The notes: generated by a model from the letters alone, not told the origin. DNA of 60,898 nt, filler included, from 10 parts of 10 records of this genome joined end to end with filler, not necessarily neighbours in it; one strand, 5' to 3'; counted from the first letter of the whole stretch, positions 7,548-55,200 are shown. Program-made: numbers and translations.

Positions 7548-7647
7548 NNNNNNNNNNNNNNNNNNNNNNNNNNNNNNNNNNNNNNNNNNNNTTAATTAAT
7601 TAANNNNNNNNNNNNNNNNNNNNNNNNNNNNNNNNNNNNNNNNNNNN

Positions 7648-14076: not shown

Positions 14077-14473
14077 CGCCAGCCACGACCGCCTGCAGCG
14101 AGTGCACACGGACCACAACGCACCTACCGAAGCTCCCTAGACAAACCCGAGCTGGCTCCCTCCAGCCGTTCGCAGCGGCCGCCACATCCCGTCCTCATTC
14201 AGCCAGCGCAGCCGCATCTATGACCACCTGCGTATGGGTTGACGGCCATCCTCCGCCATCAGCGCCATCACTGGCACCGTGCCGAAATCAACAATCATTT
14301 CCAGTCAGCCAACGGCGGCACTTTTTTTTTTTCTCTCTCTTCTTTCTCTCTCTTCTTTTTGACGTTTTTCACTNNNNNNNNNNNNNNNNNNNNNNNNNNN
14401 NNNNNNNNNNNNNNNNNTTAATTAATTAANNNNNNNNNNNNNNNNNNNNNNNNNNNNNNNNNNNNNNNNNNNN

Positions 14474-20479: not shown

Positions 20480-20795
20480 GGTTAGAACTTGCGTGCGTGT
20501 CGACCGCACAGACGCGACGGCCCGCCATCGGCCATGCAGCCTGAGGCACGCGCGCCGGGCGCCCTGCTGGAGTTGGAGTACCCAGGTTGAGTTTCTAGTA
20601 CTGGGTATGAGCTGAGTAACTCCCGCACAATCTGGGCACTGCTGCAGTCTCATCGACNNNNNNNNNNNNNNNNNNNNNNNNNNNNNNNNNNNNNNNNNNN
20701 NTTAATTAATTAANNNNNNNNNNNNNNNNNNNNNNNNNNNNNNNNNNNNNNNNNNNNAACTCGTCGTAGCCGCTGTGTGAGAATCGAGCTGGTCA

Positions 20796-22022: not shown

Positions 22023-25000
22023 TCACGGGTGGAGCTTGACAGCATCCATCAATAGTTTGTTGATGTCCGTGTCACCCTGCATCTCTGTGACCGTCGCCTT
22101 TACCTGGTCCACTTGAGCCTCTATCTTGTCCATTTCCTCCGACAATGCAGCAACAGTTTTCTTGACACTCTCCTCCAAGTCTTCTGCCGCCGCGCCCGCA
22201 ATCGATTTGTACGTGTTGAGACCCTCGTCCGCCCGCTCTGCGACAGCCTTCACTGCTTTGAGCTCCGGCTTCATCTCCTGCTGCACCTGCGTCTTCATGG
22301 CGTCCATCTTGTGCGTCATGTCCTGGATCGACTTATCCACACTTCCTTCAACGTGAGTCTTCAAGTCCTCCAGTTGACCTGTCATAGTGGACCTGAGTTC
22401 ACTGATTTTGTCACTCACCTCGCCGTCTACCTTGGTCTCCAGCGTCTTGATCTCACCGGTGAGGCCCTTTTGTGTTTTCGCTAAGTCCCTCTTCAGTTCC
22501 TCGGTCGCCTCCGCGAGAGCCGTCGCCGACGCTTTCCTTGTGTCTGCCACTTCTTCCGTGCGTTTCTTGACCTCCTCATAGACAATCGTCTCAGCCTCGT
22601 CTTTGTGCGCCTCAACCACGGTTTGCAGCGTAGTCAGCTCCTCGTTTAGGTTGTCGACGTGTGTCTTGGCCCAGTCCCTGACCTCACTGTCTACCTTGCT
22701 GTCCCCGCGCGAAATTTTGCTTTCGAGCTCAGTCTGGGCGCGCTCCAAGTTCTGGCGCACCTGCTGAAGTTGCGTGCGCAGCTCCGACTGCTCTTTCATG
22801 TTGCTCTCATCCTGCTCGTCGTTCTTGGCAGCCATGATCTTCTTGATGTCATTGAATAACGCATCTGCTTCCTCTTTCTGCGTTTTGATGCTCGCAAGAG
22901 TCTCGCGCTCCAGCTTGCGCTGTGCTGATTCGCTGGAGCGACGGAACTCTTCCATCTTCAAATCCTGCTCGTCCGTTTTGTTTTGGACGTCTTGCTCCAG
23001 ACGCTCCTTTGTGCTCGACAGCCGGTCCTCGATTGCAGAAGCGCGCCGCACCAGCTCTGCATTCGTGTCACTGATTTTTTGCATAACGTTCTCGTGCTCG
23101 CGAGCCATTTGAGCCTCGAACGTCTTTTGCGACGACTCCGCAGCGCGGGTCAACCGGGCGACACTGTCGTTCAACCTCTTCGAACTATCCTCGCTGCTAT
23201 CCACAATCTTTCTCTCGAGTTTGTCAGTTGAAGTCGAAAGTACTTTCTCCATCTCCGCGCATGCCGACTTCGTTTTCTCATTGGTGTCCTCGAGCTTATC
23301 ATCGAATCTCTTAACCTCGTGGTCAATCTGCATCTTCATATCTGCCAGTGCCTTGATGCCGTCCTTTTTGTGCTCATCGAGCTTGCGAGTGAGGTTGGTG
23401 CTCGCAGTGTTTCCATCATCCTTGTGTTTTTCCATGTCAAATCGAAGCATCTGGACGATCTCGGTGATTTCAGATTTCAACGTTGTAGCAGCAGCCTGCA
23501 CTGTGTCGTAGTTCTCCTGACCTTCACGTCCAAGCCTGGCGGTCTTTTCGTCGAGTGATTTTGCGAGTTCCTCCACCTTGTGATCGAACTTCTCGGCTAC
23601 GGCTGCGCATTCCCTCTTGGTATCCTTGGCGATGTCCTCGAGCTTGGTCTTGAACTCAGATGTCTTGGACTCGACCGTGGCTTCAGCTGCCTCAGACTTA
23701 GCCACAGCGCGACTTAAGTCGGAGGCAACATCGCTTTGCGAAGACTCGATCTGTTGCTCCAGATCACGCTGCATGCTGCTGCACCTCTCGTTGTACTTGT
23801 CGTCCATGCCGTCGACGCGCGACTTCATCTTCGACTCTAATTCGAGGCATCGCTCGGTCAGCGCCTTCTTGGTGCTGTCAACGAGCTCCTTCTGGTCGTA
23901 GTCGGGAAGCTTGGCCTCCAACTTCTTCGTTTCTTCCTTGACTTTGGCAGTCACATCAGACCACGTAGCCTCCACACGGGTGTCCAACTCTTCGCAGCGG
24001 GCTGTGAAGTCAGCCTGTGCATCCTCGAGCTTGATGAGCATCCCAGCATTACCATCTGAGAACATCTTGTTCAGCTGGATACACTGCTGGAAAAAGTACT
24101 TGTGGTGGTTGTCAATTTCGGTCTCGTGTTTCTCAGTCGACTCGTGGACCTGCGTGTCAAGGGTGGAGATCTTCTGCGAAAACTCTTCGTAGTGCTGCAG
24201 AAGAGCGTCTGAGAACTCATCCATGCGCTCGTCTAGCGTAGTCCCCTTCTCCGAGAATTTCATGTCCAAGAATGAATACTCCTCGGTAAACTGAGTCTGC
24301 ATTCGCTTGAAATCCATCGTCAGCTGCGAGAAGTGCGACTCGACCACCTGGTCTAGCGCAGTAGCCTTCGATGCAAGCTTTTTGTCGAGCTTAGCGTCCT
24401 CTGCGAGGAAGAACTCATGGTGACTTGCAATGGAGTTGTTGATCTCGGCCAGCTTGGCGTCATGCAAAATATCTGCTTGAGCTCCCTCGGTGCGAATCTC
24501 GTCCAACTCTTCCGTAATTGTTTTCTCAATGCGCTGCACCTGGTACTGTAGCTGCTTGACCTCATCTTCAACAGTGGACTGCTGGTCTTCGTAATTCTTG
24601 GCGACGGTCTGTTCCAACGCCTTGACTGCAGTAGAGAACTTCTGATCCAGATCCTCAGTGGCGCCAGTGCACTTCGTGTCGAGGTTGACGCAAGCCTCCG
24701 TCAACTGTTTTTGAATCGTGTCTATGCGGGCGTCACCAGAGCTCTTCTTGTCTGCGAGCTGTTTCCTGGTGCTCTCGAGACCTTCACTCAGCTTCAGGTC
24801 AAGACTGCCGATATCGTCCTTCAATTTGCGCTCCAAAGCATGCGTTTCTTCGGCCAGCTTTTTACGATCAGCATCCGCGCGCTTCTCCAGGTCAGCGGTA
24901 CGTTGAGTCAGGCTTTTGGTCGTGTTGCCCAGACTCTGGGTGAACTTGTCTTCCTGCTCGCTCAGTTTCTTGCTGAGCTTTGCAGACATCTTCGCGAGCT

Positions 25001-28000
25001 CGTCAGCAGAACGCTTGGCATCTGCCTCTTGCTGGTTGGAGTAGTCCTGGGTCTTGTCGCCAAACTTCTTGTCTAGCTTGCTTAGCTGATCAGCGTGACG
25101 CTCATCAGCTGCCTGGATTTCTTCAGTCACCTTCTTGGACATCTTTGCGAAGTCTGACTTTGCAGTAGCAAGACCTGTATCAATCTTACTCGATTGTTCC
25201 GTGGTGACGGATTTCAACTGACGTTCCAGTTTGGTGGTTTCCAGCTGGACCTTCTCGTCCAACTGAGCCAGTGGCGACGAGAACTTTTGCTCAATAGTCT
25301 CACACAGTTCTGTAAAGTACTTGTGCTGGCTGTCAAGACGAGCATCCTGGTCAGCGATCTTGGCCTCAAACTTCGCGTCCATACGCCCTGTCTTTCCATC
25401 GAATTTTGCGTCCAGATTACTTCCATCGTCCGCGAACTTTTTCTCGAGCTTGCGGAACAGAGCAGAAAAGTAGTTGTGCTCGCGATCAATCTCTTCGGCC
25501 TGCTCACCAACCTCCTTAGTGATCCGGTCTTCGATGCGTTCAACCAAGGCTTTGGTAGAAACGTCTTGCTTCGCATCTTCCTCTCGCTGGCGCTCCTCCA
25601 GCTTAGCACACTCGTCAAGGAAGTACTTGTTCAGTGCGTCCATCTTCTTTGAAACCTCAATGTGCTTCTCGCTAAACTGTTTCTCAAGACGGTCGTTGTC
25701 TCGGGTGAAGTTCTTGAATAGTTCGGCAGTATCATCTGCAAACTTGCGCTCCAGCTTGGCCACAACGTCGGTGAACTTCTTGTTCTCAGCAACCATAGCT
25801 GCATCCTTCACTGCGCCGTCTTCGACCATCTTCTGCTCTAGAGCGTTTAGAGTCTCGCCAAACATTCTTTGGGTCGCATCCAGAGACTCGTCTTGCTCTG
25901 CATTCCTGTCCGAGAACTTTTTGGTAATATCAGCGGCTAGCTGTGTGAATACCTCATGGTCGCTCTGAACGTTTGCTGCCATCTCCTTGATCGTAGCATC
26001 AGTCGCCGAAGCATTATCAGCAATCTTGCGCTCGAGATCAGAGGCAGACTTTGCAGCTCTTTCCTTGATTTTATCCGCCTTGTCAGTAAGATGCTTTGAA
26101 ACATCGTCAATCAGCTTCTCCAGGCTGCTGTTCTCTTGGGTAAACGTCTTGGTAAGTTTCTCCACAGTATCTGTGAATTTCGAGTTGGTCTCATCCAGCT
26201 TGACTGCCACATCGTTAAACGCAGCATCGAAGCCCTCCATGTTGTCAGCGATTTTCTTAGCTAACCCATTCACGTCGTCGCGAAGATCTTTCTCAAGCGT
26301 AGCGCACACGTTCGCAAAGTGACTGTGTTCCGTGTCCAGACGATCCGTTGTGTCAGACAGCATTGCGCTCATGGCCTTCTCCAGCTTTGCTGTAATCTCC
26401 CCACTCGATGAGCTCACGTCAGCGATTTCATCCGTGAGTCGTTTCTCCATCTTGGTGCACATGCTAGTGAGGTGCTTCTGCAGCCACTCAGATCGCTTGT
26501 CAGCCGCAGCCGACCTCTCTCCCATCTCACCATCGAAGTGGGCACGAGTCTCGCTGATGCGGCGACCTAACTCAGCACCAGATTCGGCAATCTTCTTTTC
26601 GATCTTAGAGCAGCGATCAGAAAGCTGTTTCTCGCCGGAGTCCTGTCGCTCTGACAGTGTCATTGTGGTTGAGTTGAGCTGGGCGTCGAGTTTGTCGCAG
26701 ATGCCGCTGAAGTGCTTGCGCATGCTCGCGACCAGTTCGTCCTGTTGCGTAGTCTTCTCATTTAGTGTGCTTTGCATAGACTGCATATCATCCATGGCCT
26801 CTTGGTGATTCGAAGCCACTGATTCCTCCACATCCTCTAGCTTGGAGTCGATCGCAGCACACCTGGACGAAAACTTCTCGTCAAGGAAGTTGTTCTCATC
26901 CGCAAGGCGTTGGCCAAGCTTTGCGCATTCGGTAGATATCTCCTTGTGATGCTCTGCAATGGTCGCATCGCGTGCAGCACCGTCCTGAGAGAACTTCTTG
27001 TCAAGCTGACTGGTGATGCTTTCAAAGTACTCATGGTGCTGGTCGACAGCTCGAGTCAAATCGTCCAGTCGGGTGTCAGCTTTGGATGCTGTCTCCATAG
27101 CCACCCTCTCTACCTCATTCAGGTCTTGGGTAAACTTGGTCTCCATCTTGGAGGTGGTCTCCTTCAGGTATTTCATCTCGCCGTTGATGCGATCGTCCTG
27201 CTCGTCCTGGTCTGTGGCGAACTGCTTCTCGAGGCGGATGCAAGTACTTGTGAACTTCACATCCAGGTCATTTGCCTTATCGGTGATCTTCTTGTCCACC
27301 TTGACAATCTCAGCCGAGAAGTGTTTGTGCTCTGCCTTGGATCGCTCAGAATGTTCCAGCTCCGAGTCAGCCAGCATCTTGTTGAGCCGTTTGGACTCAT
27401 CCTTAACAACCTTGACCATCTGTGCACTTGATGCGTCCACCTTCTCATTCAGCTGCCCGATAGTCTCGTCGACAGACCTCTGCAGGCTGGTGAAGGCCCC
27501 CTCAAGTTTCATCTCCAGGCCGGCCTCAACGGCTGCAGTCTTTTTGTCAAGTTTGACCACGCTAGAGTCCATCTTTGTTTCCAGATCAGTGCACGAGCTG
27601 CTGATCAAGTTCGTCAGGTCTTGGGACAAACTCGATAGACTATTGCTCGTGTCGCTGGCGCGATTGGCAATCTTTGTGTCCAGGTCACGGATGGAGCCGT
27701 TGAGCTTGGAGTCCACAGCGGAGATGGCGCCCTCCACCTTCGTTGTTGTTGCTGTAAGACGGTCGTCAAGATCAGTCGTCTTGTCGCTCAAGTCCTTGCC
27801 AAGACCAGAGCACAGCTCATTGAAGAATCGATGTTCGTTCTCGATGCGATCTGCGTTCTTGCCACTCTCCTCAGTAAACTTCTTGTCCAGCAGAGTGCAT
27901 ACGTCAGAGTACTTGTCATCCAGCCAGTTGGTTTTCTCCTTCAATTTTTGCTCAAGGGCCTGGCACAGCCCAGTAAAGTGCTGACTTTGACTCTGGACGG

Positions 28001-31000
28001 TGTTGTCCTGCTCAGCAGCCCTTACGGTCGTTTTCTTGTCGAGCCCGTCCGCAATCATGGTGAACTTCTCGTCTAACGCTTGGCTCTCTTCAGTAATACG
28101 CTTTTCGAGAGTAGAGCACACGTTGTTCACCAGGTGGCGACCTTGGTCTTCGATGCGCTGGTCTTGTTCAGTGATTTCGTGGGAGAACTTCTTGTCAACC
28201 TTGGCAATGCCCTCGCTAAACTTCTTGTCTAGCGTCCCAACCTCCTTTGTAATCTTCTTGTCGAGCTTGTTGCACAGGTCGGTAAACTGTACACGGGTCT
28301 CCTGAATGAGGCGCTTCTCATCAACTTCCGACATCTTGCGTTCGATGCGGTTGCAGGCATCCGAAAACTTGTCGTCCAACTGCGCCGTCTCATCGGTACA
28401 CTTCTTCTCAAGTTTCCCGCAGACAACACTGAAGTATTTGTGCTCGTTTTCGATGCGCTCCACTAGCGCATCATTTTCTTCTGAGAATCGCTTCTCGACT
28501 TTGCCGTACAAAGCTGTGAAATGCTTGTAGTGTGCAGCCGCGGTCTCGTCAAGGCTGTCGGTTTTGTCACTAAACTTCCGGTCCATTTGGGAGCATAGCT
28601 CGCCCAAAGTATCGCATTGGTGAGTCATTTTCGTGTGGGTGTCACTGATCTTTGCCTCGTGCGCAGCACTCGTCTCAGTAAACACCTGATCAAGATGAGC
28701 TGTCTCTTCAGTGAGGCGCTGGTCAAGCTTAGTGCACATGTCCAAAGACAGCTTGTGGTACTCATCCATGCGCTCGTCTTGCGCATTCGTCTTGTCTGTG
28801 AATTTCTTATCCAGTTGTACGTACACGTCGCTGAAGTGGGTGTGGTGAGTTTCCATGATAGCGTTGAGGCTATCCATGTCGCGGTCTAAGGCTGCACATT
28901 TTTCAGTGAACTTGACGTCAAGCTGATTCTTTTCCCCAGTGAACTTAACATTGAGGTTCTCGCATTGCTCGGAGAGCTGGCCAAAGTTGGCTTTGATCGC
29001 ACCTTCCATCGCCGTGACTTTGCCCGCAAGACCACGCTCGACGTCCCCAAGCTCCACAGTGAGTCGCTCGTTGATGTCTGCATCGGACTGGCTGAACTTC
29101 GTGTCAAGATCTGTGCACTGGCCAACCAGGTACTGGTAGTCACGCTCCATTTTTTCATCGATGGAATCGTTGCGCTCCTGCATTGCCATCTTGATCTGTT
29201 CCATCGTCGCTCCGAAGTTATCATCGATATCCGCGAGGCGGTCAGTGATGGCATCGTTCTCCTCCTGATACTTCTGGTCAAGCTTCGCGCAGCGATCGGA
29301 TAGTGTCTCCATGTTGACCTTCACATCATCCTGCAGCGTACCTATCTGTGCATCCACCGCAGAGGCGAACTCAGACTGCCGGCTGCTCATACCCTTGATT
29401 TCCTCGGTGACTTTACTATCCAGGCGTCCGAACTTGTCGGTGAAGAATCGATGCTGTTCGGCAGCACGTTCGTCCTGCTTGGCATTCTCGCTCGCTTGCT
29501 TTTTCTCTACCAAATTGCATCGGTCGGTGAAATGCTTGTAGTGCTGCTGGACGCTGGTGCTAAGGTCGTCCAGACGGCGGATACGACGATTGGTGAAGCG
29601 ATCGTCGAGGTCAGCAATGTCGTCGGAGATCTTTTTCTCAAGCTTGCGGCAAAGGTCGTGGAAACCCTTGTGTTCACTCTCAAGTTTGCTCTTGAGATCA
29701 CCTGTCTTGTCCTTCAGTTGCTTGTCTAGTGAGCTGCAAAAGTCGGTGAACTTCTCGTCTAGGCTGTGGGTTTCCTCAGTGAGCCGACCTTCCAGGCTCT
29801 TGCAGAGGTCACTGAAGTGCGCGTGCTCCACAGCCATTCGCTCGTCCTGCCCAGCGATTTCCTCGCTAAACTTGTTGTCCACCTTGCTCAGGTCCTCTGT
29901 AAAGACGCGGCCCTGCTCCTCGAGCCCATCCATCAGTTCGGTGTAGCGTTCGCTGTTTTTCTCCTCAAGCTTGCCGCAGGTGACCGCCAACTCCTCTGCC
30001 TGCCGAGTGACGTCAGCGCGCAGATCTTCGAGCAGCTCCTCGTGCCGCTGCTTGGTGTCAACCACTTGCGACTCCAGAGCATTTGTCTCGTCGGTCACCT
30101 GGCGCTGTAGCTTACCGAACAGGTCGCTGAACAGCTTGTGGTGCTCTTCGATGCGTTCGTCGCGAGTCAAGTTCTCTTCGGTAAACTTCTTCACAAGCTT
30201 CGAGCAGACGTCAGTAAAGTCTTCGTGCATCTCATGAATGCTGTCAGAATTCTCCCGAATTTTCTTATTGAGTCGGCGCTCCAACTCCTCCAGCAGGTCG
30301 TGTGTGTCCTGTGCAAGATGCGTAAGCAAGGATCAGGAACGGCTTACCAAAGCGAGACACGTGGGGCATGCAAACATGTCGGCGTACCTCGATAGAGATG
30401 GTCTTCTGCATCGTCTCGAGGAGGCCCTCGAGGGTCTCGCGCTGGCCGGCCATTTCGACCTGGACGTGCTGCGAGAGCTCTGCCAGCTCCTGCAGGCCGG
30501 CCTCTAGGTCGGTGGTATTCTTTCGGACAGGGGTCATGAGCGCCTTGAGCTCCTCCTCGAGAGTCACACGCTGCACAGTCGCATTCGTCAGCCGAGAGAC
30601 TCAGTAAACTCGACGAACCGAAAGGGCTGACGCAGTCGTGGGTGCGGTGGGCATGTGCTTACCATGCTGCGCTCTTCATTCAAGAATTCCTCGAGCTTGA
30701 GTCGCTGCAGAGATAGAAGAGTCGGCGCGGGCGGTTAGGGTGCAGCCAGTCAGCGGCGGGGGCTAGCCAACTTTGCTATCGGCGCGCCCATGGCGGTCTG
30801 ACGCATGATGGGAGTCACAACGGCGGCGCACCTCGCTGCGCTCCTTTGTGATCTCGCCCTCGATCATCATTCGCTGAGCGCACACGAGGGCAGGCGGTGA
30901 AGCAGGTCAGCGCACGGCTGAAAACTGGACGGCAGCTGAGAAGCGCAAGCAAGAGCGTTGCGAAGGCGCTTACTGCCAGTCGTTCCTCCTGGTACGACTT

Positions 31001-31075: not shown

Positions 31076-31676
31076 ATCACCGGCCCCTGCAACCCACACG
31101 CACCACCGCACCCGTTGTTCAAGCCTCAAGCCATCGCCCCCCAAACACCGCCCCCTCACAGGCACACTGCGCGCCACACCATGCCATGCCGCACTACGCC
31201 GCACTACCGAACATAGCACCGACACTCCGAGACACCCTGCACACCTATTCGACGGACAAGACAAGCAAGCAACTCGCGAAANNNNNNNNNNNNNNNNNNN
31301 NNNNNNNNNNNNNNNNNNNNNNNNNTTAATTAATTAANNNNNNNNNNNNNNNNNNNNNNNNNNNNNNNNNNNNNNNNNNNNAATCGAAGCAGAACTTGAC
31401 CCCCTGGTGCGGCGCGCGGCCGCGGGAGGTACTAGCTAGTACATGTACCGGGATACGGATGAGTGGTGATGTTTCCGGCGCGCCGGTATTGTCCGCCGTG
31501 TACAGCTGTACACATGATCTGCCCAAACCTTAAATCGCATTGTGAATGTGATCGCCTATCGCCCCGCGCGCCGGCGTCCCGCGCGCACGCGCATGCGCAG
31601 CGCATTCGTTTGCTCGCCGCGAGCACTCCAGCCCTGTCCGTCAGTGTTCTCAGAGTGGCTTGGCTGGAGCATTAAC

Positions 31677-34600
31677 ATGGCGGTGGCGGCTGGCGGTGGA
31701 TTTCAGGTGGAGTATGCCAAGTCTGGGCGGGCGAGCTGCCGCAACACGAAATGCAAGGGTGCCATCGTAAGCCCTGCCGGCGGCCGCCTTGCTCCTCTCG
31801 AGAGTGTTTGAAACGTGTACCCCGCCCTGGCTGCCAGTGGCAGCACGCTGCAGCTAATCTCACTCTCACAGCACAACGTTGACTTGTGGTCCGTCCATAC
31901 TGTGGCGCAGGCCAAGGATGAGCTGCGCGTTGCGCGGATGGTGCGCAGCCCTTTCTTCGACGGCTTTCAGCCGCAGTGGTTCCATCTCGATTGCTTTTTC
32001 ATCAAGAACGCATGGGGCGCCAAGAGCCCGTCTGAGCTTCAGGGTGTCACAGACTTGCGGCCAGACGATCAGAAAAGTGTGGCCGACGGCTTTGCCAAGA
32101 TGGCGGCGGCACAGGGCACAGCTGCCGCCGGTGGCGCCAAAGCTAAGGGCAAGGGCAAGAAGGAGAAGGGCGGCGCTGCTGCAGCTGCTGCCCCGCCGCC
32201 CGATCGTTCGATGGAGCTGCTTGCGGCCGACGGCTCCGCACTGCTACGCGTGGAACACGCCAAAAGCTCTCGTGCAGGCTGCAGGTACTGCGAGGTGAAG
32301 ATCAACAAGGATGTGTTGAGACTTGGCGTCATGATGGAACCCGACGAGAACTCTGAGTCATCTTTCCGAGGGATGCGGACCTGGTGGTACGCTTACCACG
32401 ATATACATCCACGCCCCGTGCTCAGTTGTCACGCATTGTCTGCACGAGTTTCAAATCCACTGTGCATCTGTGACTCACCCATAAGTCGACCTTAACCTGT
32501 GGTGATCCACGTGGCGGCGCAGGCACCATCGCAAGTGCTTTGGCTCGGTGCTTGAGCAGAAGATTCATGCGTCTATCCCCTTGCCGGCACTCACCCCGCA
32601 GCACTTTGAAGGTCACCAGGCGATCACCACGGAGGAAATCGAGGACATGGCGGCGATGTTTGAAGATGCACGCAAAAAGTCGGGCATTAGTGCTGGCGCA
32701 GCGAAGGGGCCGGGAGGAAAGCACACGCGCGATGATGCGGCGGACGATCCGCAGAAGACGAAGAAGAGCAAGAAGAGCAAGAACACCGGCAGCGGAGCTG
32801 CTGCGGCCGCTTCATTCCAGAACACCGCGCTGCAGGCCAAGCTAACGGCACAAGCCTCTGAATTGTGGAAAATTAAGGATGAACTCGCCCTCAGTGACCT
32901 AACAACTACAGACCTGAAAGAAATGCTGTCAACCAATAAACAGCCAGCGCGAGGGGGCGAGAACACGCTCCGCGACTTGGTAGCTGACGGGATGCTCTTT
33001 GGGTCCTTGAGCTCCTGTGTGGAATGTGGCAACGCCTCGTGGAACATGAAGAGTGACGGCTACCACTGCCAGGGTGACGTCTCTGCATATGCGCCTTGCT
33101 TGGTCGTGACGCACAATCCTCCACGGAAGCCCTGGAAAATTTCAAAGAATTACAGAAGCCGTGCTGGCACGGCGTTCTTCACCAACTGGAAGTTTGTAGA
33201 GCGCTCGCGACTCTTTGGCGAGGCTCCTAGGGTGGGCGACCAGCCTGCGACCGAGCCGTCCGTCGGGGTGGGCGATCATGCTGTGGGGGCAAGCGCTGCT
33301 GCGCCACAAGATGCGAAGAAAGCGGCTGAAGCTGCTGGCAAACCGCTGACAAGGCTGAAAATTGCCTATGCAGGTAAGGTTGGCATGGCCAAACTAAAGA
33401 AGATCGTAACGAAGCTCGGCGGTGAGAACACAACGACGCTGAACAGCACTGTGTAAGTCCTCTACGCGTCACCTATCACGCACTACTTTGGAAATATTTT
33501 GGAGTAACCAGATTTCTTGTCACTGTTGATGTGGGCAGGACGTGCGTGATCACAACCGAAGACGAGGTCTCGAAGGAAACTGCACGCATCAGTGACGCGA
33601 ACAAATTTGCGCTTCCGCTGGTGAGCGATGCGTGGCTACACGAAGCAGAAGAGAAGATGACATTGCCTCTGCTGGCGCCGCACCTGATCCACTGCGCGGG
33701 AAGCGTGCTGGAGCCAGCACACGAGAGTGTTCCAGAGCGACTGTTGAAGCGTAAGCGTGGTGGGGCGGCTTCCCAGACGGTTGTTGCGAAGGGTGGCGGG
33801 GCTGTCGACCCAGCATCAGGTCTTGCTGGGGAAGGAAGCACACACGCAGTACTGGCCGAAGGAACCACAGGTAGCTTTCCGCTTTTTGACCTAAGAAATG
33901 ATATGTGAAAGACTATATGTGTTGATATCAGCCTCAGATAACACGCCGTTGCCTGGGACAGTGTGGTCGGCATCGTTGTCATTGGTTGACCTGCGTTCAG
34001 GGGCAAACTCATTCTACAAGCTACAAGTCATTGTTGATACAGAGCGTCCAGCAAACAAGCGCGTTACTTTTTTTCGTGCATGGGGGCGTCTCGGAACCCG
34101 CCAAGGCGACCAGCGGATCTCTGAGATGGGCATCGCTGCTGCAAAGGCTGAGTTCTGTGAACATTTCTTGGCGAAGACAGGGAATGAATGGGAGGACCGT
34201 GCACATTTCAAAAAGCAACCTCGGATGTTCGACCTGGTCGATGTGGCGTACGATAATGACGACTCTACCAAATTGCCGTACGCACTCCCATCCTGGAACT
34301 GCGCGATGACTGGACATCCTCGCGTTTCTCACCTTGCTGGTCGGTGTACAGGGACGCAATGAGCACAACCGACGCATCACGAGTGCCAGGAGCGTCACAG
34401 CTTCCGCAGAAGGTACAAGACTTGGTCTCTCAACTTTTTGACGTCAGTCAGGCTGAAGCGACCATGAGCACGCTATCATATGAGCTCGACACTCGGAAAA
34501 TGCCGCTTGGAAAGATCTCTGCAGCGACGATCCGATCAGGGTATGCGATTCTCAAAGAAATCGAGGATCTGCTGGGCATGGTGGACGGGACCAGCACGGA

Positions 34601-36608
34601 TGAGATTAAGGTCAAGGACGAACCGACAGGAACGAGTCGCAGAAAAGAAGCAGAAGAGCAAGACCAGGACTCTGATGCCACAGAAGAAGAGGACGAAGGA
34701 GTAGCAGCATCTGCAGCCAAGGAAGCGCCAGGTATGGACGATGACCACAGCGTGTTTTGGTACTGGAAGGGCGATAGCAATGAAAGTGCAGCCCAAGACG
34801 TGTGGATCCGTTACAACGCGTCGACATGTGTTGCGCTTGAGGAAGCCCGAGCTGCCAAAGAGAAAAAGTACAAACTGGACGACGAGCGATTCATTGATTT
34901 CGGGAAGATGGTTCAGGCTCGTTATGATGACCCAAAGCGACGTCGTGCGCTGAAACGCGAGACCCCTGCCATTCGGAGAGCTGCGTCGAAACGAAAAGCA
35001 ACGATGGCAGCCAAGAAAGCTGCCGCTGCGAAAGATAGCAAGGCCGAGCCTGCTGGCAACATCAAACAACGGGCATCTCGACGTGGTTCTCGCAGTACTG
35101 CTGCTGCATCCAATGTGGACGATGCCCAGAGTGGACACGGCGCCAGCGCAGCAGCCGCAGCACATGAGCCATTGAATTTGTCAAAACTGCCCACGAAGGT
35201 CCGTCAGGGATTACTTGAAGCGTCAACACGATTCTATTCGAAAATTCCTCACGCATTCGGAAATAAGACTCCTCCAGTTTTGTTGAGCAAGGAGCAGCTT
35301 ACAGAAAAATCAATGCTGCTGGATGAGCTGCTGCAGCTCGAACGTACCGCGCAGATCATACGCTCAGCGACCTGTGACGATCCATCGTCGACGGCAGAGA
35401 CTAAAGTGCCACGCAGTCCCATTGATGTGTGCTACGGAAAACTGAACTGTGACCTCAATGTGCTGAAGCCCGACTGTGCTGAGTACCAGCTGATTGAAGA
35501 GATGCTCAAAAATACGCATGGGGACACGCACCGCAACTTCTCCTTGAGTGAGTCGATTCCTATTCGAATATCATTTGCCGCAAGTTTCGTTTGCAGTTGT
35601 TGTGCGGCTTACAGCTCGATGCTTGCCACGATACCTACGCGACAGGCGTTGATACTATCTTTGCTGTGGATCGGCATGGCGAGGGCGAGCGATACCGCGC
35701 ACGTAGCGAGTCGTTAGAGCCCAAAGCTCTGCTCTGGCATGGGAGTCGTTCATCCAACTTCACTGGCATCCTTGCACAAGGCCTGAGAATCGCGCCACCC
35801 GAGGCTCCAATGACCGGATATATGTACGTATGGCACAGCAACTTCTGTTAGCAGCCAGAGGGCGACTTGACATCTGCCATGTCTATAATGCGACAGGTTT
35901 GGAAAAGGAGTGTACTTTGCAGATATGGTAGGTGACAACGGTCGGCAGGCACTCAGATTAGAATCTCCTAGTGACAAACTGTTCGCTTCTACCGAGCAGG
36001 TCAGCAGTCTGCGTTTCAGCATGCTTGCTAGATTTAACTTCTTGTGTATCTGACAGGTCTCGAAGTCCGCTCAGTATTGCTTTGCTACTGCGAGCAATCC
36101 GACCGGGCTGCTGCTGCTGTGTGAAGTGGCACTTGGCACTCCATTGGAATTGACTGGCGCAAAGAGCATCAAGAAGCTTCCGGCAGGGACAGACAGCACG
36201 AAAGGCACTGGGCAGACTGAGCCTGACCCAGACGGAGACAGAGTCATCTCGAGCTGGCTCGAGGAGGCTGATGGCGCCGGTGCTTGCAGGCCTGCTACTG
36301 TCGACGGATCTCCGCGACTGCCTGTGCGCGCGCCATGTGGGGGACCAACGAGCGCTGACGTCCGACGAACCTCGCTCTTGGTGCGAGCTTGATTGCGAGC
36401 TTGCCTCGAAGTATGCGTTGGTGCTCATTATGCGTTGTGCCTACACATTACGACAGCTGAGGTGTTTGGTAGCACTAACATTTTTGTTTACGATGTTTGC
36501 GGGACCGCACAGTACAACGAGTTTATTGTTTACGATGTGGCCCAAGTAAAGATACGGTATCTCGTGAAGGCCGACTTTCTGTTCACCCACCGGCTTCGGC
36601 GCCGGTAA
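31677..36608 (+). CDS. PARP1: Poly(ADP-ribose) polymerase 1-like, 10 exons: ZnF1, ZnF2, PADR1/ZnF3, BRCT, WGR, helical domain with WWE-like insertion, catalytic domain
   Basis: VEYAKSGRASC...WFHLDCF; VEHAKSSRAGC...WHHRKCF; ADGMLFG...CxxC; AWGRLG; KMPLGK; FYSKIPHAFG; H-Y-E triad in LWHGS, GY|MFGKGVYFAD and SLL|YNEFIVYD. Introns 31767-31910, 32387-32522, 33453-33538, 33871-33937, 34278-34351, 35548-35645, 35824-35896, 35928-36056, 36381-36512. Confidence 0.93.
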
Positions 36609-37291
36609 TGATACGAGATCTGACACCACAACATAATGTGATGCAAGTTGTTTCATGTCCTTGTGCCCAGGGGACGTCAGCCCTAATCGCGCAGGCCTAA
36701 CTAATGGCGAGTGTATGTATAGATAACACAAGCATTGTTTATTCAAAAACGGTAAGGCTCGTACCAGGTATTGTAAATTGCTGGAGTGCCTGGTACCTCA
36801 ATGCAAAGGAATAGCCAACATTCTTAGCAGTGCGGCGAAATACTCGTGCCTACATCCGCCCAACATCGCGCACCGAGCTCCTCCGCATCTTCCGAGCATC
36901 ATTGCGGCCCAACTCTGCCCCAGCTGCTAGGGCGCGCGGTATTGTACAGTCCGAGCGCGCAATCGCCGACACTACTAGTCCAGATCCTCACATTGTCGAG
37001 CCACAGCCAGTGCCCGAGGTCTGGGCGGCTTCTAGCTCGTCTAGCCGCTCGTGCATTGCAGGTATGGAAAGCATTATCATAGGTTGCGATTACACACTCC
37101 TCACCGGGGCTTAGGCACGCGAAAATCATCAAAATGAGGGCTGGCGCCAGACGCCACCACTGTCGTGTTGGCGCGCTGCTCGCGCTGTAACNNNNNNNNN
37201 NNNNNNNNNNNNNNNNNNNNNNNNNNNNNNNNNNNTTAATTAATTAANNNNNNNNNNNNNNNNNNNNNNNNNNNNNNNNNNNNNNNNNNNN

Positions 37292-41143: not shown

Positions 41144-41606
41144 AGCGGCCGGTCGCCGAGCGGATCGACACAGTCACCCAAGTAAACCAGGCTTCCCGGG
41201 CCGTTGCCGCCTCGCTCGCTGTGGTGGCTCCACAGGTATCCTCGATCGCGCGCGTTCCGGTGACCGGTACTGGGGCCCTTTCGGACTCCGTTTCCTCGCC
41301 CTCAACCTGCACCACGCTTGTCGGAGCAGTCGTTCAAGCCGCTCCCCTGAGAGTCTGCGTGAGTCCGACGGTGGCACACAGCGCCAAATTTAGAGACACA
41401 TTTAAAGTTGTGCGGCGGAAGCGCCGGTGAATTGTCGAAGAGGGCTAGATCTACTCAAGGGTAGACTGAACTGAGTCTACTGTACATTTGCCTTCGTCTG
41501 ACATATNNNNNNNNNNNNNNNNNNNNNNNNNNNNNNNNNNNNNNNNNNNNTTAATTAATTAANNNNNNNNNNNNNNNNNNNNNNNNNNNNNNNNNNNNNN
41601 NNNNNN

Positions 41607-44696: not shown

Positions 44697-44877
44697 NNNN
44701 NNNNNNNNNNNNNNNNNNNNNNNNNNNNNNNNNNNNNNNNTTAATTAATTAANNNNNNNNNNNNNNNNNNNNNNNNNNNNNNNNNNNNNNNNNNNNAGTT
44801 CTGACTCCGTCTGTGGACTGAATTCTCTATTCTGACCCATCCATTGGAGGTACCTTCATGTCCGCAGGTATTTCATG

Positions 44878-48627: not shown

Positions 48628-49297
48628 NNNNNNNNNNNNNNNNNNNNNNNNNNNNNNNNNNNNNNNNNNNNTTAATTAATTAANNNNNNNNNNNNNNNNN
48701 NNNNNNNNNNNNNNNNNNNNNNNNNNNTTCAATGAATCCAGCCGTATTTTGTAGTAGTACTCTAGTACTATGAATGGTAGTAGTTCTCTAGAGAGTAGTA
48801 CAATATATAATACTGGTAGTACCTACTAGCTACTAGTGTACACGTACTAGTAGTAGATAGATGTACTACTAGTAGTACTCATAAGTCAAGTATTGTACTG
48901 ATAAAATGGTACTAGTACTGAGAGTGTGAACCATATGGTTGTGGAATGCCGGCTGACTGGTGCAGCTCCAACCCCCGCTGCTCCCCGATGTCGACGTGGC
49001 GCTGATAGTGCAGACAGCCTGGGCTACCCAGCAGCCCGTGGACTGAGCCCCGGTTTTGACCTGGTTTCCGCCGGGCAGGTGGTATCGTGCGAGTGATGGT
49101 AGCAGTGACGAGGGCAGCAGAGCCACGCACACCACACGCTAAACATAGATGACGTGAACACCATTCGAACTCATCGCCGCCGTGTGGAGGAGCGCGCCTG
49201 CGCCACCAGTACGCCGTGAGGCACAACTTGAAGTTTACTCGCTCGGCGTGCTGGGACCTTGCGGCTGATTAGACAGGAGGCCGTTGCGCTGGTGCCG

Positions 49298-52200
49298 ATG
49301 CCAGTCAGCATTCCAACAGTTGCTTCGGTTGCGCGCGAAGCAGGGACTGACAGAGTGGATCCACTGCTGGGAGGGCGGCAGAAAAGTGACGTGCTCGGTA
49401 CTTTTTGGGTGAAGCAGACGCACCTCGGGTTTTGCCCTGCGGACGTCATGTTGCAGGTCCACCCGGAGAGCCTGGTTCTCCTCAATGATGATTATGAGGT
49501 GGTTGAGTACCGGTTTCAGAACATTGTGCTGTGGACGCAAAGCCGATCAAGTATCACGATCCTACTACAGAGTACCCTGAAGCGACTGGTGCTACGAGCT
49601 AGGAATCGTATGGCAGCACGAAAAATCGCTGTCATGCTACATGACGCGACCGAAGCCTTGGGGGGGGAACTAGTCAGGAAAGCTGCTTTCTGGGGACTGG
49701 ACTCAGAGGAGGAGCGTATTGATGGTGATGGGATGCCCACAAAGAGCAGCGAGTTTGACAGTGTTGAAACCGAGCGCCAGCCACTAGAAAGTGTTCAAAC
49801 TTTCAGAGTCAAACAAACGTTTCTGACCGATCACCCAGAACATACGCCGCTCTTATTGAACATCGACAAACACGGCTTGTCTCTCAAAGACATCTCGGGC
49901 ACTACAATCTGGACATGTGAGTGGTTCAATATTTTGATGTGGAAAGCAGACGATACAGCGATTGTGGTTGTGCTCAATCAGTCAAACCGTCAGATTGAGT
50001 TGATAAGTCAGTTGAGCCAAAACATTTCAACTGCGATGACCGATAAGGCGCTTGCTGTGCACCAGTCTATGCGAGGGGAAACATACGAACGTCACTCGTT
50101 TGGTCGCAGCCAACACCTGCCAAAAGCCGAGTTGGAGTTCAGGCGTCGGATGCTAACATTTGAGCCGCCTACTATCACCCCAAACGCAAAGTGGCAGGTG
50201 GTTGGTGGGAGAAGTCTACGGGGAATATTTTCGTTGAAAAGCCAACAGAGCCTACTAGAATCAGTGCAAGCACGAGAGCAGCTGCAAGCTATTTTCAGTC
50301 AGGCAGATGTCGATGGCTCCGGGTCTCTGGATGTCGGGGAGGTGAAAGATCTCTTGAACAGCCTCAACATATTCAAAGAAGATGAGACAGAATTCTCGAA
50401 GAAGGACATCCAGCTCATGATGATAGACATGGATGCCTTTGGTAATGAGGTAACCTTCGACGGGTTTGTTGCTTGGGCGCTCGGTAGTACCAGTGGAGCA
50501 CGGGCGACGACGCTCTTGAAGAGTCGGGTGGAACACCGTAAAAAAGAAGTGGCAGCAGTCGGGCAAATTTATGACCAGCTGGACCAAGACGGGGACGGAA
50601 TGCTGGACCGTTCAGACTTCACGGCGTTTTTGACTCACGTAGGCTTGTCTCTAAATGATCAAGAGATCTATCTACTTTGGGGAAGGTTGGATAGAGATCG
50701 GTCAGGACAGATTGGCTTCCAAGAATTCTACGACTGGTACAAACGAGAAACCATCGATCAGGTCACAATGCAGATACAACGGTCAATTCGATTGACAAGA
50801 CTCCTGGTCAACACGAAAGGGGCGATGGTATATGCTGTGGATCGAGGGAATCTACGCGCAAAGGACTCCTTGCGGAAGCTATTTGAGTCCGTCGATCAAG
50901 TGGGTACTGGAGTGATCGGACAGGAAGATCTGATGGCTGTTGTCAAAGACCTGCGGATGGAAGCGGATGAATACGACGTCGTCATGGCGCTTAGGCAGAT
51001 GAGTCAGGGCGGGGATGGTAGCGTAGACTTCAAGGCCTGGATGTCTTGGTGGTGCAGCAACCCAAACGATACAGAAAGCGGAGTTTTGCGCAGCAAAATG
51101 AAGCTCGCTGCGTTCACATCGAGAAGTTCCGGCCCACTGTTTCAAGTTGTGGGTACATCTACCGAGGCGGCTGCAGCATCTGAGGCTTACCTGAATGAGC
51201 TACTGCAAGCTGCGTTCGCTCAGAAACAGGAGCTGCAAGGCTCGTCTCTGGGTGTTTTCGGGGAGAACAACAAGCTTCGTCTGTGGTGCTCACACCTGAT
51301 CCAAAACCCGCTCACTGATCGTCTGTTGGTGGTGGGCATCTTTGGAAACGTGGCTTTAATGGCAGCGCAAACACCTGGAGAAGCTTCGACAGTTGGGCTG
51401 GCGGCAGTGAACTTTGGTCTGATGGTAGTCTTTACTGCGGAGATGGGAATGCGCATTGTAGCCAACGGCTTGGTGTTTGGCGAAACAGCTTATCTACGTA
51501 ACGGTTGGGACGCATTTGATTTCTTGATCATCAACGCGGTCTGGGCAGTATACGCCGCTTCTCTGTACGTGGATATTGACGAAAGCGTAGGTTTCACATT
51601 AGCGATGCTACGGTCGTTTCGAGCGTTGCGGTTTTTCACTCACATCAGAAATATCCTTGCCAGTATCATCGCGGGGCGTGCTATGATAGGCTCGGTGCTC
51701 CTTCTGCTCGCGTTCTTTTTCATGCTGGTTTACGTCATCGGCTTTCAGATGTTCCATGGGGTGTTGGACACCGCGTGCTATGATGCAAGCAGTAGTTATT
51801 GTGATGAATGCGGTGTAATTGAGGACTGCCCAAGCACGCTACAGTGCTCCAACGTGTACCCCGACGGGCACATATGCCATTCGCTGACTGTTTCCAATGC
51901 AACCACACCAGACCGCACCCTCGCAAGCACACCAATATTCGGGTTTGACACGTTTGCGGCCTCGGCATTGACTGTAGTTTCCATCACAACATTTGATGGG
52001 TGGTTTGACATCAGTGTTCATATGAGAGGCAGTACGGTGACGATGCGACGTTGGGCCTGGCCGGGTTTTGCTGCAGCGGTAGTCTGGATCGGATTGTTCA
52101 CAGTCAATCTGTTCGTAGCAGGATTGGCGTATTCGTTCATCAAAGTGCGGAAGACGTCGAGAAATCTGGACGCACAAGGAAACCTGAAGAAGTCACTCGT

Positions 52201-55200
52201 CGACAGGTTGCTTAATGATAAGCTGCAGAGCGGGGTGCTTGAAGAGGGATCAAGGCATGTCCTTCAGTTGTTGCATCCCGCAGCAACACGCACGGCGAAA
52301 CGATGGAGCCACAGCAGTTGGTTCCTAGACGGCATTTTGCTCACCGTGATGATCAATGTTGGCTTCATGGCAGCAGAGCACCACAACCCTTCTGAGCAGA
52401 CAGTATTGATTTTCGAGATCGCAGAAGCAATCTTTACGGTGATATACACCTTCGAGCTCTTAGTAAAGTGGCAGGCGATGGGATTTTCGCAGTACTTTTC
52501 CATCAGTCTGAACCGCCTGGACTTCGTTATAGTGCTGTCAAGTTTGTTCGGCTACTGGCTGATGCTGTTCAACGACGATGTAAGCAATGCACAAGGCAGC
52601 GCCGTTCTACGACTGCTACGGGTCACAAAACTAGTTCGTGCTGCGCGTGTGGCAAAAGTTATTTTTCGTTCAGCCTCTGTCAGAGAGATGGTGGCTAAAG
52701 CATTTGCTGGGCTCGACGCAATCTTCAGTCTATTGATGTTTATCTTCTTCATGCTGACGCTGGCAGCCATTGGTGGAAGGGAGCTATTCCATAGCTGTTC
52801 CAATGGCGCAGAACAGGCACTGACCCACCACCCAAACTTCAAGACCTTCTGGCAGAGTTTCCTTATTTCGTGGCAGGTCATGACGTTAGACTCATGGACA
52901 GGGCTGATGATTGCGCATAAGGAGTGTGCAGGCAACATCGCAGTCGTGTACTTCGTTTTCATTGCTAGCACATGTGCATTCGTGCTGGGTAACCTCTTCG
53001 TAGCAATTTTGTAAGTAGTTGTCCACTGCAGCCGGTACCACCTATGTAGGTGCACTAAGCCTGACCGCGTTGCTGCTGTGCACGTAGCATGGAGAACTTC
53101 GAGATCCAAGACGAAGAAAAACGAGATATGCAGGTCGGGATCTATATGCAAATGCTTGCTCAACAGGGAGCGAGTGAAGGTCCGAAGGGATGGGTGAATG
53201 AAATTCAGAAAGGCCTTCAAGGAGTGGAAGATATGCTGACCGAGACAAACACTGTCAGCGTGCTGCGGCGCCGCACACTTGATGAGTTCCTGAAAGGTGC
53301 AAAACTTACGACAACCGCTGGAAAGTATGTCGGCAAAAGAACCCTTCGGATCATGCCTATCACCAGACCAGTCGATCGGTGCAGCAAGTGGTGGGCTGAC
53401 TGCCGTCAGCGTCACAAGCGTACAACGGACGATAGCCAGTCCCCACGGTTCAGTGCTTCAGCACTGAAGCAAAAATCAACTGGGTGCACGCAACGACAGT
53501 TCTGGATAGATGTAGTAGGGAGCACCTCCTATCGCAATTTCATGATCTTCACCACGACTGTGGGAATCGTTGATACAATCTTGAGCGCTGAGAGCTCTGG
53601 GATGTCAACGATGCAACACTTCGTGTACATAACAGCTAAACTGTTTGTTACAAGCGCGTTTGTTCTGGAAAGCATCATTAAAGTGTACGCGTACCGCTTG
53701 CTTGGCGACAAAGATCCAAGCGTCTGGCCCTCACCTACGACTTCCTGGGAGTTGTTCATGGCTGTTGTACATGCTTTAGCCGGTCTAAATGTTCCTTACG
53801 CACCCGCGTTGCTACCTCTACGGGCATTCCGTATGGTTTACATGGTGAAGCGGCTGCGATTGATGTTTGAAGCATTTGTTCGATCATTATCAGCCGTTTG
53901 GACGGCACTAATGCTCATGGCAGCCAGCTTTCTGGCTTTCGGTATCATCGGCATGAATTTGTACTCAGGTTTACTTTGGCACTGTGTGGGAGCCTTGCAA
54001 CTCGATCGGAAAGAGTGTGATGCAGCAGGACTGCCCTGGGAAAATCGAGCTGCCAGTTTTGACAATATCGTTGAATCATCTATTTCTTTGTTCACTGTCT
54101 GGTCTCTACAAGGCTGGACAACACTCTGGTACTGGGCAATGGATGTGACATATATTGATGAGGCTCCCGTCAAGGATGCTGGAACGTTGACGGCATTTGT
54201 TTTCTTCGCTTCGTTCATCATGTGGAACTCTCTGATGCTCACCAATCTGTTCACGAGCATGCTGTGCGACTACTTTGCCCGTGAGTTCTTCTTACACCAC
54301 TGCCCATGGCAATCACTTGCGCTGACCTCGATTGCGATGCGTCATTTTGTAACAGAGACTTCCGGGAGCATCTTGATGACTAGCGAGCAGCGAAACTGGC
54401 AGTTTATGAGCATGTTTCTGGTGGAGAGCTTGAAGCTCGAGGTGGTCCCTCCGCCTGATGCCGATCGTTGGTTTGGAATGGCGGCCACGGGCTTCGATGC
54501 GGTGCACTCGAAAGTGTTTCAACGTCTTGTTGACCTTACAATTGTTGCCAGCGTTGTTTCTATGGTAGGACAACAATCAATGTTGAGCCTAGACCCGACT
54601 GGTATCGTCGCAGAAGTGTTATTGTCACTAGACGAGCTTGCTCTGTTTGTGTTCACCTTGGAGGCGCTTTGTACTTTGGGTGGACTCGGTGTCAAGATTT
54701 ACTTACGCGAATTTCAGATGGAAGCAATGGTGTGCGCTACAATGTGGATGACCACCGTGCTGTTGTATCTTCAAGTTTACCATGGGATCGTAGTGCTTCC
54801 ACAGCTTCAAGCCATCACATTCATCCGAGCAATGCGTTTGATTACAGTTTTGAAGCGAGTAAATGCGATCAAGAAGATTCATTTTCTAGTGGCGCTTGCG
54901 TGGCCTCAAGTGGTTAACCTCTGCTGCATCATGCTGATTGTGTTCATCGTTTTTGCGGCATATGCTAACATGCTGTGCGGAGACATCCCGCACAGCTCAG
55001 CGGTTAATGAGTTCGACAACTTTGATACTGTACGTTCGTCATTCCGAGTTCTGTTTCAGCTGTGCACGGGTATGTCTATGCTCGGCGTCAACTATCAGTG
55101 CGCTGAGTACCACGGGAAGATCGTTCTTCTTTTCTTCATGGCATTTTTCTTCTTGACGAATCTGCTACTGGTCAATCTGTTCATCGCATTGTTGCTGGAC

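Follow-up and report, generated by a model that had tools for sequence, protein, structure and literature searches.

We describe a PARP1 gene of an uncultured marine protist in which a WWE domain is nested inside the autoinhibitory helical domain (HD, Pfam PARP_reg) that precedes the ADP-ribosyltransferase (ART) domain. The gene occupies positions 31677..36608 (+ strand) of the window, by which we mean the whole stretch of 60,898 nucleotides that was analysed. An in-frame insert of about 210 residues separates the two halves of the HD, and we conclude that it is a real, coding and lineage-conserved domain insertion. As a gate, the HD holds PARP1 inactive until DNA damage has been detected, and clinical PARP inhibitors act allosterically through it. 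A natural PARP1 with a nested domain is a test of how much load the loop between helices alphaB and alphaD tolerates without breaking autoinhibition.

A complete WWE domain interrupts the HD

We searched single-exon or open reading frame (ORF) translations of the gene with Pfam. The peptides cited by an initial annotation, which had read this region as a PARP1 with a WWE-like domain in its HD, are all present in one open frame, a stop-to-stop ORF at 34260..35717 (+ strand). In the 446-amino acid translation of 34263-35600, PARP_reg matched with 103 bits (cut-off 26.8) in two stretches. Between them, the full WWE profile (PF02825, positions 1-67 of 67) matched residues 164-232 with 35.2 bits (cut-off 21.1). 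The PARP_reg match is thus split around a full-length WWE match, as that annotation had predicted. The 210-amino acid insert by itself scored 36.4 bits as a WWE domain (E 7e-9), and none of the five ORFs in the other frames and on the opposite strand across the insert had a Pfam match at E<=1.

Alignments place the insert between the helices that correspond to human alphaB and alphaD. Against the human PARP1 chain 4hhy_A, the HD match ends at query residue 76 (chain residue 65) and restarts at query residue 288 (chain residue 73): the window PARP1 has 211 residues at a point where human PARP1 has 7. When two canonical protist PARP1 proteins were used in tblastn, the HD match broke at 34574-34595 and resumed at 35190-35211. 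The insert had been said to start at 34576; it is indeed in frame and real, but its codon frame begins one base earlier, at 34575. In the assembled 1332-amino acid protein, the insert spans approximately residues 800-1009 and the WWE domain approximately residues 859-927. The insert lies, with both HD halves, within a single exon, exon 6 (34352-35547).

The N-terminal HD half (34392..34577, + strand) contains the helices matching human alphaA-alphaB and ends in ...GYAILKEIEDLLG. It covers positions 1-60 of the PARP_reg profile and aligns with residues 6-65 of the human PARP1 chain. The C-terminal half (35190..35546, + strand) contains the helices matching human alphaD-alphaF together with the first ART residues, and aligns with residues 73-174 of the same chain.

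How long is this loop in other PARPs? We searched 1.84 billion representatives exhaustively with HMMER, obtained 1453 matches at E<=0.001 and inspected the best 150. The HD was uninterrupted in 127 of these 150. Measured in 127 WWE-less clade-1 PARP representatives with both HD halves, the same HD gap has a median length of 9 residues; it comprises 5-21 residues in 116 of the 127 and 29-97 residues in the other 11. The 11 long gaps (P0069, P0045, P0130, P0019, P0146 and six others) are low-complexity Lys/Arg/Ala/Ser stretches, mostly basic, and hold no domains. The alphaB-alphaD position is one that tolerates insertion generally, and the loop is a tolerated site for engineering sensors into PARP1.

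The HD is predicted to fold normally around a separate WWE globule

The profile match and the predicted fold agree that the core of the insert is a WWE domain. AlphaFold2 (AF2), one of the checks suggested at the outset, gave a confident WWE fold, with predicted local distance difference test (pLDDT) values of ~90-98 for the domain in the models. An AF2 model of the 89-amino acid WWE region alone, built from a 21-sequence alignment, had a mean pLDDT of 79.8 and the order strand-strand-helix-four strands (half-barrel). When this WWE model was compared with the PDB by Foldseek, ranks 1-24 were all WWE domains, including those of TRIP12, RNF146, DTX1/Deltex, HUWE1, PARP14, ZAP and PARP11, and the first unrelated row had a probability of 0.06. 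In the 21 aligned WWE sequences, the signature residues W15, W17 and E42 are invariant and W30 is nearly so.

The whole-exon model (399 amino acids, 41-sequence alignment) has pLDDT values of 74-97 in the HD helices, including those of the N-terminal half, of 94-98 in the WWE domain and of 90-95 in a basic helix that follows it. The linkers, at exon residues 85-130 and 236-270, fall below 50. We compared this model with 48,161 PDB representatives using VIA-align. Across the insert, the split HD superposes on residues 662-831 of human PARP1 (4dqy_C) with 167 aligned residues, a Z of 10.7 and a root-mean-square deviation (rmsd) of 4.1; Z was 10.7 against PARP3 and 10.1 against PARP2. A Z of ~10 between helical bundles is not strong by itself, and the HD sequence match agrees with it. 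The WWE domain superposes on DTX1 with Z 10.8 and rmsd 1.4 over 64 aligned residues, on HUWE1 with Z 10.2 and on RNF146 with Z 9.1-9.4 (range for TRIP12, HUWE1 and RNF146, 9.1-10.4). Both HD halves are thus predicted to form a normal bundle, with the WWE domain as a separate globule on two long flexible tethers.

The insert consists, in order, of an acidic patch, the WWE domain, a conserved basic helix and a variable linker; the acidic linker before the WWE domain and the basic stretch after it had been described correctly. The acidic linker (34578..34748, + strand) is predicted to be disordered (pLDDT <50 at exon residues 85-130) and is 57-64% identical to the relatives described below, with indels. 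Within it, the motif DSDATEEEDE (34668-34697, columns D107-E116) is invariant in the window and three relatives; the motif also offers CK2-like Ser/Thr contexts. The WWE domain (34752..34958, + strand, PF02825) is followed directly by the basic helix (34965..35039, + strand, TPAIRRAASKRKATMAAKK...), which the model places at exon residues 206-230 with pLDDT 90-95 and in which R209, R210, K214-A221 and K223 are invariant in four sequences. The acidic motif and the basic helix could form a latch, bind histones, act as a nuclear localisation signal or help in binding poly(ADP-ribose) (PAR). The last segment is an Ala/Ser/Arg-rich linker (35046..35189, + strand), also predicted to be disordered (pLDDT <50 at exon residues 236-270), whose identity drops from 64% to 18% across the relatives, with indels. 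In total, about 57 residues on one side of the WWE domain and about 45-75 on the other are predicted to be disordered (pLDDT <50).

The nested arrangement is conserved in environmental relatives

The nested form was found in six environmental relatives that are 49-99% identical to the window. Three of them contain the N-terminal HD half, the WWE domain and the C-terminal HD half: P0154 (452 amino acids, 99% identical to the window PARP1), P0004 (427 amino acids, 74-77%) and P0155 (406 amino acids, 73-76%). P0156 (662 amino acids, 58-67%) has the same three parts and the whole ART domain. Two are shorter fragments: P0005 (240 amino acids, about 60%), in which the WWE domain is followed by the C-terminal HD half, and P0057 (230 amino acids, about 49%), in which the tail of the WWE domain is followed by that half. 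Three smaller fragments (P0023, P0011 and P0006) are consistent with the nested form. The arrangement recurs in independent NCBI, ENA and Logan records that are 58-99% identical, and the insertion point is identical in every relative that covers it.

The WWE domains of the relatives score 30.9-36.8 bits (PF02825). The window WWE is 86, 79, 70 and 65% identical to those of P0004, P0155, P0156 and P0005, with 0-2 gap columns, and the C-terminal HD half is 79, 84, 70 and 58% identical to the same four. Linker identity to the relatives runs from 64% down to 18% with many indels. Judged from these alignments, the WWE domain is about as conserved as the HD, and the linkers vary.

P0156 reads without a break from the N-terminal HD half through the WWE domain and the whole ART to the C-terminus, and introns 6-9 of the window gene are absent from it. 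P0154, P0004 and P0155 extend past ...NFSLS into what looks like intron sequence, so these three records are ORF calls on genomic DNA.

The HD loop of P0057 carries a further domain of the royal family. It lies at residues ~62-112, after the WWE tail and a basic stretch and before the C-terminal HD half, and it matches the PHF20L1/PHF20 Tudor domain (E 1.7e-4), the L3MBTL3 MBT domain and the Tudor-knot profile (21.4 bits, cut-off 20.8). The alphaB-alphaD loop may therefore collect reader domains in this lineage.

Outside these records, a single-protein query found no relative's DNA in JGI metagenome contigs; a query made from a four-sequence alignment recovered from them only L001, a 38%-identical PARP without the insert. 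No relative was found in prokaryote genome contigs. ESM Atlas offered, as a lead only, two WWE-only clusters (0.83 and 0.79, under the 0.9 level). The nearest relatives of the WWE domain itself are in WWE-PARP, WWE-WGR-HD-PARP, WWE-Macro and WWE-VWA proteins.

The nested WWE may act as a tethered reader of ADP-ribose

We infer the ligand binding, the ligand specificity and the functional consequence of the nested WWE from its sequence and predicted structure. We favour, with a probability of roughly 0.55, the view that the domain is a tethered reader of ADP-ribose/PAR and holds the enzyme at modified sites. The WWE domain, probably aided by the basic helix, would bind ADP-ribose units of PAR. 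After PAR synthesis on the enzyme, on histones or on proteins nearby, the domain would serve as a built-in reader and would keep or concentrate the enzyme at the modified site, so that the signal spreads or lasts longer. HD gating of NAD+ would be influenced only secondarily, by drag or steric effects on alphaB, and not through a rigid lever. A tether is preferred to a rigid lever because the connections are long, predicted to be disordered and variable in length, and because the same loop takes unrelated inserts (11 of 127 representatives) and a Tudor-like domain in P0057. A loop in which reader domains accumulate resembles a permissive socket that accepts targeting modules. Even if the module is only a tether, this DNA-repair enzyme from a marine lineage that has not been studied is a clean example of domain nesting.

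The ligand site was compared with that of RNF146. In the available text on its structure, Tyr107 stacks on and hydrogen-bonds to the distal ribose of iso-ADP-ribose, Gln153 makes a dual hydrogen bond to adenine and is highly conserved among WWE domains, Arg110, Trp114 and Lys175 contact the distal phosphate, and Arg163 contacts a phosphate (PMC10877565, PMC11269756). The distal-ribose and distal-phosphate contacts give the preference for iso-ADP-ribose (PMC11269756). We mapped these residues through weak but consistent alignments to human and mouse RNF146 (E 0.46-1.4). Gln153 corresponds to Gln and Arg163 to Arg in the window WWE, both within MVQARYDDPKRRR. In the 21 aligned WWE sequences the Gln153 equivalent (Q67) is invariant and the Arg163 equivalent (R77) nearly invariant. 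We read the ADP-ribose pocket as apparently intact and its preference for iso-ADP-ribose as doubtful.

Several observations weigh against a tethered PAR reader in an intact, spliced PARP1. Tyr107, Arg110 and Trp114 of RNF146, the contacts that mark an iso-ADP-ribose-specific WWE of that type, are replaced by Trp, Gln and Ile, and specificity for iso-ADP-ribose is therefore doubtful. The loop between strands 1 and 2 is 7 residues longer than that of RNF146 and partly acidic. As judged from these residues, the affinity and specificity of the window WWE could be low or different. The insert is anchored at the end of alphaB, so a direct effect on gating is conceivable. The first residues of P0156 resemble a retained intron 5, and this record may be a partly spliced transcript or genomic DNA of a species with fewer introns. 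A full-length predicted protein with the nested architecture was not found among the ~8000 most word-sharing candidates per search, and the relatives are ORF-level fragments; this absence is weak evidence because the word-indexed searches scored only ~8000 candidates each. Finally, four of 11 metatranscriptome contigs of the locus (see below) hold predicted intron sequence, and a splice joint was seen nowhere in the gene.

An allosteric product feedback is the next explanation to consider. Here PAR bound to the WWE domain would pull on alphaB, or stabilise its open or closed state, and so gate NAD+ access: the enzyme would be fed forward or back by its own product, in part independently of DNA. 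The attachment points of the insert coincide exactly with the C-terminal end of the alphaB equivalent and the beginning of the alphaD equivalent, every relative that covers the site has the same insertion point, and the conserved acidic patch and basic helix could make a switchable intramolecular contact. In RNF146, binding of ligand to the WWE domain is reported to switch a neighbouring domain. Helices alphaB, alphaD and alphaF are the dynamic elements on activation; in the published text available to us, exchange in alphaB and part of alphaF speeds up ~1000-fold, and HPF1 gains entry when alphaB rearranges (PMC8150716). PAR is also listed among the allosteric ligands of PARPs in the part of a 2026 preprint that treats them. 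Against this, both connections are long, predicted to be disordered and subject to indels among relatives, and would transmit force poorly. The loop accepts low-complexity inserts and, in P0057, a second reader-type domain, which fits a docking site better than a tuned lever, and the model, read without coordinates or predicted aligned error, gives no sign of contact between the WWE domain and the HD. We regard this mechanism as possible but distinctly less probable than the tethered reader. Equally tentative is its fuller form, in which the nested WWE would be a product sensor shifting the open/closed equilibrium of the HD, with the acidic patch and basic helix as a latch and the loop as a socket for further readers such as the Tudor-like domain of P0057. 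If it were true, this PARP1 would be switched on or off not just by DNA breaks but also by the polymer it makes, a natural case of reader-in-writer allostery. The nested WWE is a test of whether product binding at this loop feeds back on activity.

It is rather unlikely that the WWE domain is folded and conserved without being a PAR reader, for example as a binder of another adenine nucleotide or of a protein partner, or as an automodification or histone-binding platform beside the active site. Of the six ligand contacts that the literature names for RNF146, three are altered. In the text available, human WWE domains differ by orders of magnitude in their affinities for PAR, ADP-ribose and ATP (PMC11269756). 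The DSDATEEEDE motif and the Ser/Lys/Arg-rich linkers would also suit histone-binding or modification-acceptor segments, which they resemble. However, the adenine-binding Gln is invariant and the Arg163 equivalent nearly so in the 21-sequence WWE alignment, and the closest WWE relatives are all in ADP-ribosylation proteins. The replacement of Tyr107 by Trp does not settle the matter: HUWE1, with the same Trp, binds 11-mer PAR at 0.15 uM, and TRIP12, also with this Trp, binds it only at 13.3 uM (PMC11269756). The Trp is therefore compatible with either strength of PAR binding. We return to the tethered reader as the reading that we prefer.

Coding status of the insert

We next consider whether the insert belongs to the mature message. 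Codon usage favours the PARP frame in all segments of the insert (+0.44, +0.39, +0.13 and +0.05 bits/codon). The acidic linker scores +0.44 in the PARP frame versus -0.11 and -1.16 in the other two, and the variable linker, at +0.05, is weak yet scores best in the PARP frame. The corresponding frame of six introns of the gene scores -0.25 to -0.01.

For RNA, we used 11 contigs from four runs in three studies of marine/seawater metatranscriptomes, each with an identity of at least 99%. They place the organism in seawater samples. The contigs tile 34298-35474 except for 34759-34774 and show no joint. The intron-containing records are X1 record 1, which begins in intron 5, X2 record 5, which crosses intron 3, X2 record 7, which crosses introns 7 and 8, and X2 record 8, which begins in intron 9; their unspliced cover comprises 33427-33646, 34298-34506, 35697-36062 and 36400-36666. 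Since the "RNA" contigs include introns, the libraries hold DNA or unspliced RNA of the locus, and the contigs therefore prove neither expression nor retention of the insert in a mature mRNA. That the insert is exonic is suggested by conservation of the frame, domain-level constraint and codon usage, and not by RNA.

The insert could be coding and still excisable, a facultative exonic intron whose removal yields canonical PARP1 beside the WWE isoform. The 627 nt from the GT at 34581 through the CAG that closes at 35207 are in frame, and their removal would join ...EDLLGM to GLLEAS... and restore the canonical loop length; all nine mapped introns of the gene end in CAG. However, four of the six GT/AG pairs in the boundary zones are in frame, which is the chance expectation, the donor GTGGAC is unlike the nine donors in use, and, at 144 nt, the longest mapped intron reaches less than a quarter of those 627 nt. 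This joint was not seen in the contigs either, which carries little weight because they are unspliced throughout. We consider such excision improbable.

It is very improbable that the insert is an artefact, be it an intron that escaped recognition, a misassembly or a piece of a decaying pseudogene: the metatranscriptome contigs give no proof of a mature mRNA and the window joins short contigs of an environmental bin, but the insert and both HD halves lie in one open frame within a single N-free contig, independent NCBI, ENA and Logan records at 58-99% identity repeat the arrangement, the WWE domain is as conserved as the HD with 0 frameshifts, each segment of the insert has its best codon-usage score in the PARP frame while six introns score at or below about zero in most frames, and the remainder of the PARP1 gene is intact.

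Relation to known PARPs and WWE proteins

The initial annotation had held WWE domains to be absent from canonical PARP1. They are not foreign to clade-1 PARPs: the available text of Citarelli 2010 places WWE in PARP clades 2 and 3 only, but according to that of Perina 2014 the PARP2 homologues of bird, frog and fish carry an N-terminal WWE domain, and we found protist WWE-WGR-HD-PARP proteins with related WWE domains. Because WWE is already known in clade 1, the new element is the nested position and the PARP1 host. The view that the architecture was undescribed has so far stood. In the main texts of the full-text literature searched, which excludes curated architecture tables, we found no WWE domain that sits inside an HD or belongs to a zinc-finger PARP1. 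Both the components and the idea of nesting a reader within a PARP are already known; a WWE domain in the HD of a zinc-finger PARP1 appears to be new.

Outside the insert, the window PARP1 has the domain order of canonical PARP1 (human ARTD1; P0002/P0003) and is colinear with it over its full length, with aligning HD and ART and the H-Y-E contexts. It differs in having 211 residues with a WWE domain, versus 7 in human, between alphaB and alphaD, and in a BRCT region without a Pfam match here. With the WWE-bearing PARP2-like PARPs (bird, frog and fish PARP2; protist P0001, P0013, P0024 and P0117) it shares a single chain that combines a WWE reader with a WGR-HD-ART writer. The WWE domains of P0001 are 33-41% identical to the window WWE and share the motif DDERF(I/V)D...M.Q.R.DD. 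In these PARP2-like proteins, however, the WWE domain is N-terminal to WGR, the HD is uninterrupted and PARP zinc fingers are absent; in the window PARP1 the WWE domain lies inside the HD and zinc fingers are present. The fusion of writer and reader has therefore arisen more than once in clade-1 PARPs and at different positions, N-terminal in PARP2-like proteins and nested here.

Among other WWE proteins, RNF146 (Iduna; PDB 3v3l/4qpl/1ujr) shares the fold (Foldseek probability 1.00, template modelling (TM) score 0.63-0.67) and the kept Gln153 and Arg163, but the partner of its WWE domain is a RING and not a PARP HD. The WWE domains of HUWE1 and TRIP12 (PDB 6miw, 6pfl and 9bkr) are the best or near-best structural matches of the window WWE. 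According to the available text of PMC11269756 they have, like it, a Trp at the Tyr107 position and an acidic distal-phosphate region; they are parts of HECT ubiquitin ligases, where no other domain encloses them. A precedent for the nesting is in PARP9 and PARP14, where, in the text available, Macro domains are inserted into a split KH domain (Suskiewicz 2023, PMC10450202): here too an ADP-ribose reader is nested with disordered linkers. In those clade-3 mono-ADP-ribosyltransferases the host is KH and the reader Macro, whereas in the window, in clade 1, they are the HD and WWE.

The host gene is a complete PARP1

The host gene encodes a complete PARP1 with the order Zn1-Zn2-PADR1/Zn3-(BRCT)-WGR-HD-ART. 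Its ten exons on the + strand (31677-31766, 31911-32386, 32523-33452, 33539-33870, 33932-34277, 34352-35547, 35646-35823, 35897-35927, 36057-36380 and 36513-36608) end in TAA. The nine introns, with splice sites read from the sequence, are GT-AG introns of 61-144 nt with CAG at every 3' end. When the exons were assembled and translated by script, the joined coding sequence comprised 3999 nt and 1332 amino acids with 0 internal stops. The protein is colinear with canonical PARP1 (P0002/P0003) over amino acids 9-799/806 and 1009/1012-1325, and with P0156 over amino acids 726-1332. Intron 4 has two in-frame acceptors 6 nt apart (33931 and 33937; ATCAG and CCTCAG), of which the first was chosen; two residues are at stake.

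Exons 1-2 (31677..32386, + strand) encode two PARP-type zinc fingers, found as two stretches of PF00645 (76.2 bits, cut-off 39.3) in the ORF 31812-32495; intron 1 lies inside the first finger, whose start reads in exon 1. Exon 3 (32523..33452, + strand) encodes the PADR1 helical and zinc-ribbon parts (third zinc finger; PF21728, 61.6 bits, and PF08063, 39.5 bits) and the start of the BRCT-equivalent region. That region is divided by intron 3, and no Pfam BRCT match was obtained in single-exon translations; it is colinear with the BRCT-bearing P0002/P0003, the alignment by which BRCT is placed. Exon 5 (33932..34277, + strand) encodes the WGR domain (PF05406, 51.1 bits, cut-off 22). The ART domain (35646..36608, + strand) is encoded by exons 7-10; PF00644 profile positions 27-81, 93-150 and 178-198 match on exons 7, 9 and 10, and the H-Y-E triad contexts WHGSR, GKGVYFAD and YNEFIVYD are present in the assembled protein. 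The H-Y-E motifs of P0156 align to those of human PARP1. The zinc fingers, PADR1/Zn3, WGR, an HD before the ART and the ART triad contexts are all those of a PARP1-type clade-1 protein, and the naming of the host as PARP1 is borne out by both Pfam and the assembled coding sequence.

The window is a concatenation of ten short contigs from one environmental bin, separated by nine spacers (4044-4143, 7548-7647, 14374-14473, 20658-20757, 31282-31381, 37192-37291, 41507-41606, 44697-44796 and 48628-48727). Each spacer reads 44 N, TTAATTAATTAA and 44 N. Gene order across spacers is therefore no evidence of synteny. The contig that holds PARP1 (31382..37191, given without strand) is bounded on both sides by these artificial spacers and has no internal N in the N-run table. 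PARP1 is its only gene, and adjacency to the other genes of the window is not implied.

The other contigs carry ion channels with EF hands, SelO, NDUFV1, a GH38 mannosidase and giant repeat proteins. Very long open frames run at 22023-30332 (- strand), 8104-14136 (- strand) and 49232-56694 (+ strand); among the long frames are one of 2769 amino acids with apolipoprotein-like helical repeats and one of 2010 amino acids with ankyrin repeats. Two neighbouring ORFs of 1260 and 1209 amino acids with Ion_trans and EF-hand domains may be one multi-domain cation channel.

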